NCBI GenBank assembly: GCA_025454755.1
Contig: JALONV010000009.1
Span: 7,561 to 71,560 of the forward strand
DNA: 64,000 nt
Reading direction: 5' to 3'
From: Bacteroidales bacterium
GTDB taxonomy: Bacteria; Bacteroidota; Bacteroidia; Bacteroidales; VadinHA17
Of this stretch, positions 8,016 through 11,396 are shown one piece after another (position 1 is the stretch's first letter; every line of letters begins with the position of its first letter). Both the position numbers and the translations under genes were made by a program. The notes under the pieces were generated by a model that searched no databases, had not been told where the DNA came from, and was given only the letters and a program-made list of their open reading frames with translations.

Positions 8016-9554
8016 ATGCTTATAAGAACATTTGCCAGTGCCGTTACCGGTATTGACGCAGTGACAGTTACCATAGAGGTTAATGTGTCGCGCGGGATCC
8101 GTTTTTTTCTTGTAGGACTGCCAGATGTTGCAGTCAAGGAGAGCCAGCAGAGAATTGAATCTGCCCTCCGTTCGTTAGGTCATAAATGGCCCGGCAAACA
8201 GGTACTGATAAACATGGCCCCTGCAGACATCAGGAAAGAGGGATCATCATACGACCTTCCCCTTGCAATGGGCATACTTACTGCCGATGAAAAAGTAGTA
8301 AAAGACGAAATAGAATCCTATATATTGATGGGAGAGCTTTCCCTTGACGGAACTCTTCAGCCGGTGAGAGGTGTGCTGCCTATCGCTCTCAGGGCACGTG
8401 AGGAGAAGTTCAGGGGTGTCATAGTCCCCGTAAAAAATGCACGCGAAGCAGCTGTGGTAAATGGTCTGGATGTTTTTGGTATGGAGAATCTTGGTGAAGT
8501 GGTCGATTTCTTCAATGGCATGAAGAAATTCGAACCGGTTAAAGTCGATCTGATGGAGATCTTCAACAATGAAGCAAACAAATATGATGTTGATTTTTCT
8601 GATGTCAGGGGACAGGAAAATGTCAAGAGGGCCCTGGAGGTGGCTGCCGCAGGCGGCCACAACATACTTATGATCGGCCCTCCCGGCGCAGGCAAAACGA
8701 TGCTGGCAAAAAGGATCCCTACAATAATTCCGCCTCTGACCCTCGAGGAAGCCCTGGAAACCACCAAGATACACTCTGTCGCGGGAAAGATCGACGACCA
8801 TACTGCCCTCATGACCCGAAGACCTTTCCGGTCGCCACACCATACTATTTCAGATGTTGCGCTTGTTGGCGGAGGAACATTCCCCCAGCCGGGAGAAATA
8901 TCTCTTGGCCATAACGGAGTACTTTTCCTCGACGAACTGCCGGAATTCAAGCGTACTGTGCTCGAAGTAATGAGACAACCTCTTGAAGACAGGGTTATAA
9001 CTATCTCCAGGGCTAAATCGACAGTGGATTATCCTGCTTCATTTATGCTGGTAGCAAGCATGAATCCCTGTCCGTGCGGATTCCATAACCACCCGGAAAA
9101 AGAGTGCATGTGCTCTCCCGGTATGGTTCAAAAATACCTTAACAGGATCTCTGGTCCTCTGCTTGACAGAATAGATATACATATCGAGGTTGTCCCCGTG
9201 AAATATGACAAACTGACAGAATCAGGAAAAACTGAGAAATCAGCTGTTGTAAGGGAAAGAGTGGTAAAGGCCAGGGCAATACAGGCAGCCAGGTTTGCTA
9301 CAATAAAGGGAGTCTATTCGAATGCACATATGTCATCGTCAATGCAGAGAAGATATTGCCAGCTCGATGAAACGGGAGGAAGGCTTCTTAAGACTGCCAT
9401 GGAGCTTAGAGGATTATCGGCAAGAGCATACGACAGGATTCTGAAAGTGGCGCGTACTATTGCCGATCTGGCTGAATCGGAAAATATTACATCTGAACAT
9501 ATTTCTGAGGCAATCAACTACAGGAATCTCGACAGAGAAGGCTGGGCTGGCTGA
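8016..9554 (+). CDS. comM: YifB/ComM Mg-chelatase-like AAA+ ATPase
   Basis: NMAPADIRKEGSSYDLP, GELSLDG, GPPGAGKT, FRSPHHT, LFLDELPEF, MNPCPCG, SGPLLDRID, LSARAYDRILKVARTIADL. Confidence 0.95.
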   Translation: MLIRTFASAVTGIDAVTVTIEVNVSRGIRFFLVGLPDVAVKESQQRIESALRSLGHKWPGKQVLINMAPADIRKEGSSYDLPLAMGILTADEKVVKDEIESYILMGELSLDGTLQPVRGVLPIALRAREEKFRGVIVPVKNAREAAVVNGLDVFGMENLGEVVDFFNGMKKFEPVKVDLMEIFNNEANKYDVDFSDVRGQENVKRALEVAAAGGHNILMIGPPGAGKTMLAKRIPTIIPPLTLEEALETTKIHSVAGKIDDHTALMTRRPFRSPHHTISDVALVGGGTFPQPGEISLGHNGVLFLDELPEFKRTVLEVMRQPLEDRVITISRAKSTVDYPASFMLVASMNPCPCGFHNHPEKECMCSPGMVQKYLNRISGPLLDRIDIHIEVVPVKYDKLTESGKTEKSAVVRERVVKARAIQAARFATIKGVYSNAHMSSSMQRRYCQLDETGGRLLKTAMELRGLSARAYDRILKVARTIADLAESENITSEHISEAINYRNLDREGWAG

Positions 9555-9558
9555 GTTC

Positions 9559-9654
9559 GGCTTCGCTCACTCAGACCAGCCCAGGCTTCGCTCACTCAGA
9601 CCAGCCCAGGCTTCGCTCACTCAGACCAGCCCAGGCTTCGCTCACTCAGACCAG
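9559..9654 (+). repeat. Tandem repeat, 25-bp unit GGCTTCGCTCACTCAGACCAGCCCA, 3 full copies plus 21 bp
   Basis: Read directly from sequence; units are identical. Confidence 0.97.
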
Positions 9655-9679
9655 GTTATAATTAGTTTGCTGCAAATCC

Positions 9680-10048
9680 ATGAAAAGACTTTATGTATAT
9701 ATTTTAGAATGTGCAGATGATAGCTTTTACGTAGGAGTTACTAATAATGTCGGAAGACGGTTTATTGAACACATGACTGGTATAAAAGAGAATTCATACA
9801 CTTTCAACAGAAGGCCTTTGAAATTAGTGTTTTGCAGGGAATTTGAGCGGCCAATGAAAGCAATTAATTATGAGAAACAGGTAAAAGGTTGGACAAGAGC
9901 CAAAAAAATGGCACTCATCAATTCGGATTTTAAGCTCTTACATGAATTAGCTAAATGTAAAAACGAAACATCTCATACAAATTACATGGTCAGAGTGAGC
10001 GAAGCCGAACGAGGACCATGTAAGCGAAGCCGAACGAGGACCATGTAA
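9680..10048 (+). CDS. Small GIY-YIG nuclease (UPF0213/YazA-like)
   Basis: YVYILECADDSFYVG, RRFIEH, EKQVKGWTRAKK; the last ~20 aa are encoded by the downstream repeat. Confidence 0.9.
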   Translation: MKRLYVYILECADDSFYVGVTNNVGRRFIEHMTGIKENSYTFNRRPLKLVFCREFERPMKAINYEKQVKGWTRAKKMALINSDFKLLHELAKCKNETSHTNYMVRVSEAERGPCKRSRTRTM

Positions 10049-10092
10049 GCGAAGCCGAACGAGGACCATGTAAGCGAAGCCGAACGATGACC
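9998..10092 (+). repeat. Tandem repeat, 25-bp unit AGCGAAGCCGAACGAGGACCATGTA, 3 full copies plus a partial copy
   Basis: Read directly from sequence. Confidence 0.97.
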
Positions 10093-10100
10093 CAGTTACA

Positions 10101-10178
10101 GGAGTGATTTTCCTTTGTGCTCTTAGTGGTTAAAATTTAAAATCATTTTATTCCTCAATTTCAAGCTAAAATCACTCC
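10101..10178. repeat. 78-bp segment bounded by 11-bp perfect inverted repeats
   Basis: GGAGTGATTTT (10101) and AAAATCACTCC (10168). Confidence 0.6.
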
Positions 10179-10280
10179 CAATCCTCTTAATACTTAAATC
10201 GATATTAATATTGGTTTTATTTGCAGTCTTGTTAATTTTTGTTAATTTTATCTTGTTAAAACCTACCTGATTAACCCGGC

Positions 10281-11396
10281 ATGGATCTCACCCGCAAGAT
10301 TCGCACCATGTTGATGGAGCAGCGCCTTATGTTTGTATACAGAGGCATTGTAACAAATGATAATTCCATACCCCTGCTGATGCTTCTTGAAAAAGAGATG
10401 GAGACCGCTGAATTCGGATTTGTAGGCCGTAAAAGACTTTTTATGTTTGTTCTGGAGAGCCTTCAGAATGTTTCACGACACAGCAACGGGACGGTTCATT
10501 CAAATATGTCGCTGGTTGTCTATTCCAAGCAAAGTGGAGGTTATACCGTTACGACCGGGAATGTCATTTCCACTGCCAATATAGAAGATCTTAAGAAGCG
10601 CCTCGATGAGATAAACAACCTGGCCACCGATGAGATCAGGAATGTGTACAGGCAAATGCTGAGTAATTCAGAATTCAGCAGTAAGGGCGGCGCCGGGCTG
10701 GGCCTTATTGAAATGGCCAAGAAAACAGGAAACAAACTCGATTATGACTTCCTGAAGCTCGACGATCAGAACTCATACTTTATCCTGAGCAAAACTGTTG
10801 ATTCTGAAGGAACCGGTGTTCATTTCAGTAACAACGAAAAACCTTTTCACGGGAAGGCCGTGTCACAACTCGAAAGAATCATGGCAGATAACAATATCTA
10901 TCTTCTCTGGTCGGGACATATTACTCCGGATGTCGGAAAAGAGGTTATTTCATTTACCGAGACGAAGCTCTCTGAAGATGATATTGAAGCAAACCTGAGA
11001 AGGAGGGTATTCAGCATTCTTGTCGAGATAATAGAGAATGTGGCAAAATACAGTCCGGGGAAGGAGGCTGAAGAGAAATTCGGAATGCCTGTGGCAATGA
11101 TAAGGTTTGAGAATAAAACATACTCTCTTACAACAGGCAACCTTATCCTTAATGAAAAAGTCGCTCATCTGAAGGAAAAACTCGAACTGATCAATCAGTA
11201 CGACAAAATAGGACTCAAGGAATTATTCAGGAAATCTCTTTCAGGCCAGACAATAAATTCTGAAAGCACCGGCAACATGGGTTTGATAGATATGGCAAGA
11301 AAATCAGGGAGCAAGCTGGCATACGAATTTGAAGAAATAAACGACCAGTTTTCCTATTACACCCTTACCGTTAAGGTTGAGGATAGACCTCTTTAA
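10281..11396 (+). CDS. SiaB-family (GHKL-like) protein kinase, tandem two-domain form
   Basis: Two homologous halves: ESLQNVSRHS...TTGN...GGAGLGLIEMAKKTG and EIIENVAKYS...TTGN...TGNMGLIDMARKSG. Confidence 0.8.
   Translation: MDLTRKIRTMLMEQRLMFVYRGIVTNDNSIPLLMLLEKEMETAEFGFVGRKRLFMFVLESLQNVSRHSNGTVHSNMSLVVYSKQSGGYTVTTGNVISTANIEDLKKRLDEINNLATDEIRNVYRQMLSNSEFSSKGGAGLGLIEMAKKTGNKLDYDFLKLDDQNSYFILSKTVDSEGTGVHFSNNEKPFHGKAVSQLERIMADNNIYLLWSGHITPDVGKEVISFTETKLSEDDIEANLRRRVFSILVEIIENVAKYSPGKEAEEKFGMPVAMIRFENKTYSLTTGNLILNEKVAHLKEKLELINQYDKIGLKELFRKSLSGQTINSESTGNMGLIDMARKSGSKLAYEFEEINDQFSYYTLTVKVEDRPL

Follow-up and report, generated by a model that had tools for sequence, protein, structure and literature searches.

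The Ssn nucleases are small single-domain GIY-YIG proteins, of which SsnA from Neisseria meningitidis (94 amino acids, aa) is the named example, and hairpin repeats designated NTS or SRM lie next to their genes, often on both flanks (Chenal, 2025; PMC11893778). According to the accessible text of that article, to which all statements about the published system are limited here, the enzymes bind the repeats in the form of single-stranded DNA (ssDNA), the cut falls a few nucleotides (nt) upstream and is affected by three letters 5' of the palindrome, cleavage also occurs when the two hairpin halves lie on separate oligonucleotides (Discussion), RNA is not a substrate, and SsnA reduces the transformation of Neisseria by repeat-bearing DNA (PMC11893778). 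A locus that invites comparison with this system lies in a 64,000-nt stretch of DNA from a Bacteroidales bacterium of the VadinHA17 lineage (contig JALONV010000009.1, positions 7,561 to 71,560), hereafter the window. Directly behind the gene comM, the locus probably constitutes a cassette made of a hairpin, a small GIY-YIG nuclease gene, and a second, inverted hairpin, with two arrays of 25-nt tandem repeats that represent amplified hairpin halves. Judged from its sequence, the cassette is probably a variant of the Ssn nuclease/hairpin system described in 2025, set apart by the half-hairpin arrays that it carries.

A cassette of paired hairpins behind comM

The cassette occupies the short spacer 3' of comM, before the next gene (Table 1), and GIY-YIG, at residues 5-76 of 122, is the sole domain recognised by Pfam in the nuclease open reading frame (ORF). 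The proximal outer arm of each hairpin is the 3' end of a coding sequence: on the left, the final codons of comM (9542-9554, with the TGA stop at 9552-9554), and on the right, the end of the nuclease ORF, which extends through the right hairpin and into the right array. Folded as ssDNA, the left hairpin reaches -18.1 kcal/mol (z -5.9) and the right one -7.7 kcal/mol (z -4.1), and in both cases none of 200 shuffled sequences folds as well. The two hairpins have in common a 22-nt core, GTC[T/A]GAGTGAGCGAAGCCGAAC, placed in inverted orientation and identical at 21 of 22 letters. A 14-mer present on both sides occurs five times in the window against 0.01 expected, and neither this 14-mer nor the 22-nt core occurs outside the locus in the 2.9-Mb, 160-contig draft genome; with the core confined to one locus of the draft, a genome-wide family of repetitive extragenic palindromes (REP) was ruled out. 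Each hairpin can be described in layers, namely the conserved core (a GTC[A/T] tag followed by the loop GAGTGAGCGAAGCCGAAC), a short inner stem, and a locus-specific outer stem; the heptamer GCGAAGC lies in the middle of the loop and makes a small inner stem in predicted folds.

Table 1. Features of the comM-adjacent locus (window positions)
Feature	Position	Strand	Description and basis
comM (Mg-chelatase/ComM family ATPase)	8016..9554	+	ORF; Pfam Mg_chelatase 2.8e-97, ChlI, Mg_chelatase_C
Left hairpin	9542..9584	-	Arms 9542-9555 (CTGGGCTGGCTGAG) and 9570-9584 (CTCAGACCAGCCCAG), loop 9556-9569 (14 nt); fold, orthologue comparison
Core, left copy	9555-9576	-	GTCTGAGTGAGCGAAGCCGAAC; direct comparison
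Left tandem array	9559..9654	.	3.8 x 25 nt, unit GGCTTCGCTCACTCAGACCAGCCCA; Tandem Repeats Finder (TRF), 100% matches
Small single-domain GIY-YIG nuclease gene, Ssn-like	9680..10048	+	122 aa; ORF and Pfam
Right hairpin	9982..10023	+	Arms 9982-9991 (TTACATGGTC, inside nuclease ORF) and 10014-10023 (GACCATGTAA), loop 9992-10013 (22 nt); fold, orthologue comparison
Core, right copy	9989-10010	+	GTCAGAGTGAGCGAAGCCGAAC; direct comparison
Right tandem array	9998..10092	.	3.8 x 25 nt, unit AGCGAAGCCGAACGAGGACCATGTA; TRF, 98% matches
DUF6272 protein gene (outside the feature)	10281-11396		Next gene after nuclease gene

The hairpins are conserved as structures. Eight loci holding the closest homologues of the nuclease (70-91% aa identity) were compared together with their flanks, and all have the same cassette layout; in the seven that hold upstream sequence, comM ends (...NLDREGWAG-stop) just before the Ssn-like gene, which stands directly 3' of it. 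The right hairpin is kept in seven of the eight loci, being degenerate in L123, and takes the form of an outer arm, GTCA, 3-4 nt, TGAGCGAAGCCGA, A, 3-4 nt, TGAC, and a second outer arm, in which the outer arms vary by species yet stay complementary. In an ungapped alignment of nine orthologues, 12 of 17 pairs of the right hairpin change on both sides and 71.9% of the cells are paired, versus at most 38% with slid partners, values that none of 500 shuffles reached. The left hairpin, compared in six orthologues, has 82% of its cells paired, and its single variable stem pair (CG three times, UA twice, GC once) tracks the third, synonymous letter of a comM Ala codon (T-A, C-G, and G-C pairs); in L124, where this Ala codon is GCA, the pair is broken. 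The tag letters G10, T11, and C12 are invariant in all nine right and all six left hairpins. As a side observation, the comM end in one public contig of a metagenome-assembled genome (L127:1300-1500) passes into C, A, and T homopolymers, most likely through an assembly fault.

These co-varying arms bear on an original prediction, made from the letters of the window alone, which had noticed that the variable part of each tandem unit is the reverse complement of the DNA just 5' of the array and had taken the repeats for a record of their own insertion. The complementarities lie where they had been placed, with 14 pairs and one bulged A (9575) between the comM end and the arm behind the loop and with 10 of 10 pairs on the right, and on both sides the tail of the unit is complementary to what lies 5' of the array. 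In the light of the orthologues, the supposed variable tail is the distal arm of a conserved, co-varying hairpin, and the match of each unit to its flank is likely to reflect the hairpin stem rather than an insertion record.

Filled, remnant, and empty sites coexist within the genus. A survey of 24 other same-genus genomes found 21 that match the query at the end of comM, and among the 24 only G005 also matches the nuclease gene. Loci from other genomes were printed in 11 cases, of which five are empty (L176, L179, L180, L182, L183), comM ending ...GW(A/T)G-stop and being followed by unrelated sequence with neither core nor palindrome. Four others hold a lone core or hairpin (L174, L175, L177, L178), displaced past the stop in L178; in one (L181) the gene is absent and the left core adjoins the right hairpin, an arrangement shared by L013 from another assembly; and one (L173) combines the nuclease gene with a left array built of 38-nt units. 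In a further relative, G022, the DUF6272 gene directly follows comM, with a lone hairpin between them. The terminal comM codons R-E/D-G-W-A/T-G-stop are found in all 12 printed same-genus loci, the five empty sites included. Insertion of the core into a pre-existing palindrome was ruled out by the five empty comM ends, in which no palindrome is present. Because the comM arm exists without the element, it is the non-coding arm that has been fitted to the comM arm, and the complementarity could be kept either by selection on point mutations or by quasi-palindrome template switching.

Comparison with Ssn and other hairpin-associated nucleases

Four features of the locus recall the Ssn system: a small single-domain GIY-YIG protein, here of 122 aa; a gene bracketed by inverted hairpin repeats, in the window as well as in its orthologues; a GTC tag 5' of the stem that orients the repeat; and the pairing of each paralogue with its own hairpin type. 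The last of these is seen in the Sphingomonas genome G041, whose five GIY-YIG paralogues (L184-L188) match the window protein. The closest (E 4e-19) is flanked by CGTTCGTCCTGAGCGAAGTCGAAGGACG-type hairpins, the published SRM pattern matches alongside L186, and a hairpin class of its own stands beside each of the four of five paralogues whose flanks were printed (all except L186). L185 and a downstream protein share one open frame of 364 codons. Other features are unlike Ssn: the loop and stem GTC[A/T]GAGTGAGCGAAGCCGAAC fall outside the published degenerate SRM pattern, the outer stems in the window are locus-specific and partly coding, and one-sided half-hairpin arrays are not mentioned in the accessible text of PMC11893778. 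Four 13-mers of the core had no occurrence in the literature text searched, although the sequence logos of PMC11893778, an article available in part, may still cover it; in that article Supplementary Data 5 is a genome list without repeat sequences, and Supplementary Data 4 includes homologues of cd10448 from Ignavibacterium album and a Tenacibaculum for which SRM are not enriched. We conclude, on sequence comparison, that the window cassette would belong to a branch beside or within the Ssn family, one with its own hairpin class.

In an order-level sample, 23 of 401 genomes, the window's own included, have a homologue at E <= 1e-25, with never more than one per family among 30 itemised families, and the flanks of these order-level homologues carry the hairpin class of the window. 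In at least six of the 24 order-level homologue loci (L339-L362), the gene lies within approximately 500 nt of a contig end, as is expected if flanking repeats break assemblies. An exact 17-mer scan of 596 Gb of genome contigs returned at least 120 matches, some 70 of which are expected by chance by our own estimate; most lie in unrelated coding sequence, and only L013, L026, L038, L080, and L116 are informative. A search of the nuclease against NCBIfam gave nothing above cut-off. Elsewhere in the genome of the window, on the minus strand at C36:4087-4317, lies another GIY-YIG gene with 42% identity to the first over 78 aa; it is preceded by a different inverted pair of GTCATCCCGAGCGTTAGCGAGGGATC type enclosing a 23-bp perfect palindrome (C36:3700-4700).

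Beyond the GIY-YIG proteins, the locus resembles the REP repeats and their composite elements (BIME) with the associated Y1 enzymes (RAYT), as well as the ends of IS200/IS605 elements, in that extragenic hairpin repeats are tied to a nuclease of ssDNA hairpins and occur in clusters or arrays; the comparison with REP and RAYT is drawn in the Discussion of the Ssn paper itself (PMC11893778). In contrast to those systems, the enzyme is a GIY-YIG protein rather than an HUH/Y1 protein, and the arrays of the window are direct repeats of a half hairpin rather than alternating whole REPs.

Several observations nevertheless weigh against reading the locus as an Ssn-type cassette with tandem-amplified hairpin halves. 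The core is present at one locus of the genome, unlike the hundreds of repeat copies in Neisseria. The published SRM regular expression has one unrelated match in the window and 17 in the genome, none of them at the locus, and the SRM pattern matches in only two of 51 homologue loci; in addition, the SRM-flanked Sphingomonas paralogue L186 matches the window protein only at E 4.7e-6, and the nearest relatives of the nuclease with solved structures are, by sequence, the UPF0213 proteins 1zg2 (5e-12) and 1ywl. As for the arrays, the mechanism of their duplication is one that we infer, and the microhomology at the junctions in the window amounts to only 1 nt, which is weak for simple slippage. 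Finally, the arms of the window are the longest and most exact among the orthologues on both sides, for which a templated process would be a readier explanation than drift.

Form, reality, and origin of the half-hairpin arrays

In both arrays of the window, the unit joins part of the loop to one outer arm, the non-coding arm on the left and the distal arm on the right. Read on the sense strand of the core (minus), the left array consists of n copies of the 5' arm and part of the loop, followed by a full hairpin. The terminal unit of the right array has diverged (CGATGACCC...) and retains TGAC, the form carried by eight of nine aligned right-hairpin orthologues, the hairpin of the window itself having GGAC. 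In L121, the nuclease frame stops at the TGA of the distal arm (CGA TGA CC), giving 111 aa by reading of the printed sequence; the units of the window read CGA GGA CC, so that the ORF continues for another 11 codons into the array, of which the last, diverged unit keeps the TGA. Both arrays extend rightward, onto the non-coding side, which is most simply explained by the fact that both left arms are coding: duplication of that half would damage the comM or nuclease frame.

Comparable arrays recur elsewhere. Relatives have left-side arrays with units of 38 nt (L173), 19 nt (L128), 26 nt (L123), and, in the closest relative, a diverged 24 nt (L121), and right-side arrays of other sequences with 5.9 (L122) and 3.3 (L125) units of 25 nt; the half-hairpin pattern is also found at distant loci (L134, L148, L150, L298, L333, L355, L357, L359). 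A TRF census of the fetched loci, with classes assigned by eye, comprised 53 motif-bearing arrays: 15 in which repeats of the 5' arm and loop precede one full hairpin, seven in which a hairpin precedes repeats of the loop and 3' arm (three of these being the right array of the window and its orthologues), eight tandems of full hairpins, one ambiguous array, and 22 set aside as GC-rich, coding-like repeats; its filter missed the left array of the window and the orthologous arrays in L121, L123, and L173. A strict polarity rule was ruled out by the presence of both polarities (15 versus 7 by eye), and a bias towards the 5' half is possible. By our own reading of the loci, array junctions fall after core positions 8, 9, 12, 15, 17, and 20 or later, and the heptamer is the junction in both arrays of the window, in L125, and, as the equivalent GCTCCGC, in L173, without being so in general. 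The recurrence of one-sided half-hairpin arrays points to a specific instability of these sites.

By analogy with SsnA and NTS, the encoded nuclease would bind the hairpins as ssDNA and cut next to them. The first duplication would most likely have arisen through misalignment of the nascent strand or template switching at the hairpin, with its endpoints in the loop and at the base of the stem, possibly aided by a nick from the cognate nuclease, and ordinary slippage would then have expanded and homogenised the units.

It is highly improbable that the arrays are artefacts of assembly or amplification and that the true sequence holds one unit per side. The genome is a 160-contig draft, and the read evidence, which consists of Logan contigs assembled from sequencing runs that do not give exact copy number, does point to fewer units than were assembled. 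Run X1 contains 0.90 of the sampled words; its contigs are interrupted at each of the two arrays, leaving fragments of 40-45 nt that consist of repeat alone and whose depth is 1.0-2.1x that of the flanks (1.7-2.1x for the left array). In simulations, cyclic repeat-only contigs require more than 2.2 tandem units, with 3.8 units giving 3x and 2x depth and one unit fewer giving 2x and 1x; the arrays are therefore real, and the X1 depths fit approximately 2.8 units on the right, about one below the assembly, and a mixture on the left. A single unit per side is further contradicted by run X2, from another study, in which 55 nt of the left array (2.2 units) recur without differences, and by independent assemblies that have comparable arrays at both positions; runs X3 and X4 yielded only diverged comM-like pieces, uninformative on the arrays. 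The X1 contig with the nuclease gene differs from the window only at 9629-9651 (seven substitutions and five missing letters), which suggests that the gene-proximal end of the left array differs among near-identical strains and has a diverged terminal unit. Action of the hairpins as RNA, whether as terminator, attenuator, or stabiliser of the comM and nuclease mRNA with the nuclease gene incidental, is also a poor prospect. Such a role would suit their location at the 3' ends of two co-directional genes and a few G-U cells in the covariation of the right hairpin, but positions 9400-10400 contain no terminator-like site (GC-rich stem and T run), and the best matches in Rfam 15 reach 27 bits against gathering scores of at least 95 and are eukaryotic miRNA models. 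Moreover, the opposite orientation of the core on the two sides means that the two transcripts would carry different loop sequences; taken together, the lack of a T-run terminator and of an Rfam family and the opposite core orientation argue for action at the DNA level. The hairpin class also accompanies the gene family across phyla in both orientations, and the published Ssn enzymes, in the accessible account, do not act on RNA (PMC11893778).

The original prediction had derived the arrays from a nick, a snap-back at the d(GCGAAGC) mini-hairpin, self-templated extension over approximately 10 nt of the 5' flank, and repeated re-priming, a course of events that we regard as unlikely. Its description of the restart is accurate for the window, in which the sequence resumes at GCTTCGC (9585) on the left and at GCGAAGC (10024) on the right, and the independent 38-nt array of L173 likewise restarts at GCTCCGC. 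In the right array, complementarity to the flank is complete (10 of 10 letters) for the internal units but not for the terminal one, and the presence of the comM arm in empty sites again speaks for a distal arm fitted to it. As a rule for other arrays, restart at the heptamer fails, given the spread of junctions over the core. Nor is the left hairpin a clean snap-back product: beside the heptamer, TCA stands against TTCG, letters that do not pair, and the conserved GTC[T/A] tag includes the bulged A. The array tails of relatives pair imperfectly with their own flanks, with only eight of nine letters paired and the rest of the tail unpaired in L122 and one mismatch in L125. When other copies were examined for tails that follow their flanks, the genome of the window offered no other copy, and genome G595, from a relative, was found to have 19 copies of its own hairpin version at more than 10 places (a reversed control pattern gave none), with the same or compensated arms regardless of the flank, contrary to a record of insertion context. 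Slippage, furthermore, suffices once two units exist. The GCGNAGC mini-hairpins invoked are documented as unusually stable, with in vitro stability as the known property of the heptamer that they have in common with the loop of the window (PMC13037366, in its accessible text); the re-priming role given to them sits poorly with junctions that in relatives are not tied to the heptamer. Template switching that extends the identity of arms in imperfect inverted repeats, so that one arm is rewritable as the complement of the other, is a known process according to the available text of two sources (PMC7202029; PMC3820800). Such rewriting of quasi-palindrome arms is the defensible core of the fold-back idea, which held true insofar as the non-coding arm has been fitted to its comM partner and for the most part found no support in its nick and snap-back. 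What the quasi-palindrome process corrects or extends is arms, unlike the formation of arrays here, and to our knowledge it is not known to build tandem arrays.

A last alternative, rather unlikely in our estimation, would have the half-hairpin arrays arise from the nuclease system or serve within it, instead of resulting from passive slippage. The arrays may be scars of repeated nicking at the stem base by an Ssn-like enzyme, combined with strand-displacement synthesis that stalls in the loop. They may otherwise be reservoirs of half-sites whose locus-specific arms pair in trans with complementary ssDNA and rebuild a cleavable hairpin; DNA of the comM end entering during transformation may be such a partner, which the conserved comM-adjacent position would fit.

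Neighbouring repeats and implications for the gene family

ComM is a helicase of natural transformation, and by analogy with the Neisseria system a functional link between the comM-adjacent nuclease and transformation is possible. Further small repeats surround the cassette: a 10-nt unit, TTGTTAATTT, is present in 2.1 copies at 10229-10249, upstream of the DUF6272 gene, and its motif also occurs in L121 and L174, whereas a stretch of approximately 30 nt just past the right array (10104-10139) matches further sites in same-genus genomes (four in G016, two in G022, and one in G001) and appears to be another small dispersed repeat.

The hairpin class described herein, with the loop GAGCGAAGYCGAA behind a GTC tag, is widespread with the small GIY-YIG genes of a Bacteroidota, Ignavibacteriota, and Sphingomonas branch, and the published pattern fails to capture it. 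What is added to the accessible text of PMC11893778 is thus a new hairpin class, recurrent one-sided half arrays, and a conserved site right after comM. The filled, remnant, and empty sites within one genus form a natural series in which to study how such cassettes are gained, decay, and disappear. If the nick-scar version of their origin were true, a nuclease-driven mechanism of tandem duplication would be visible in genomes. More broadly, the arrays, otherwise a tidy example of a known system, would become an in-genome read-out of nuclease activity if the nuclease causes or uses them.

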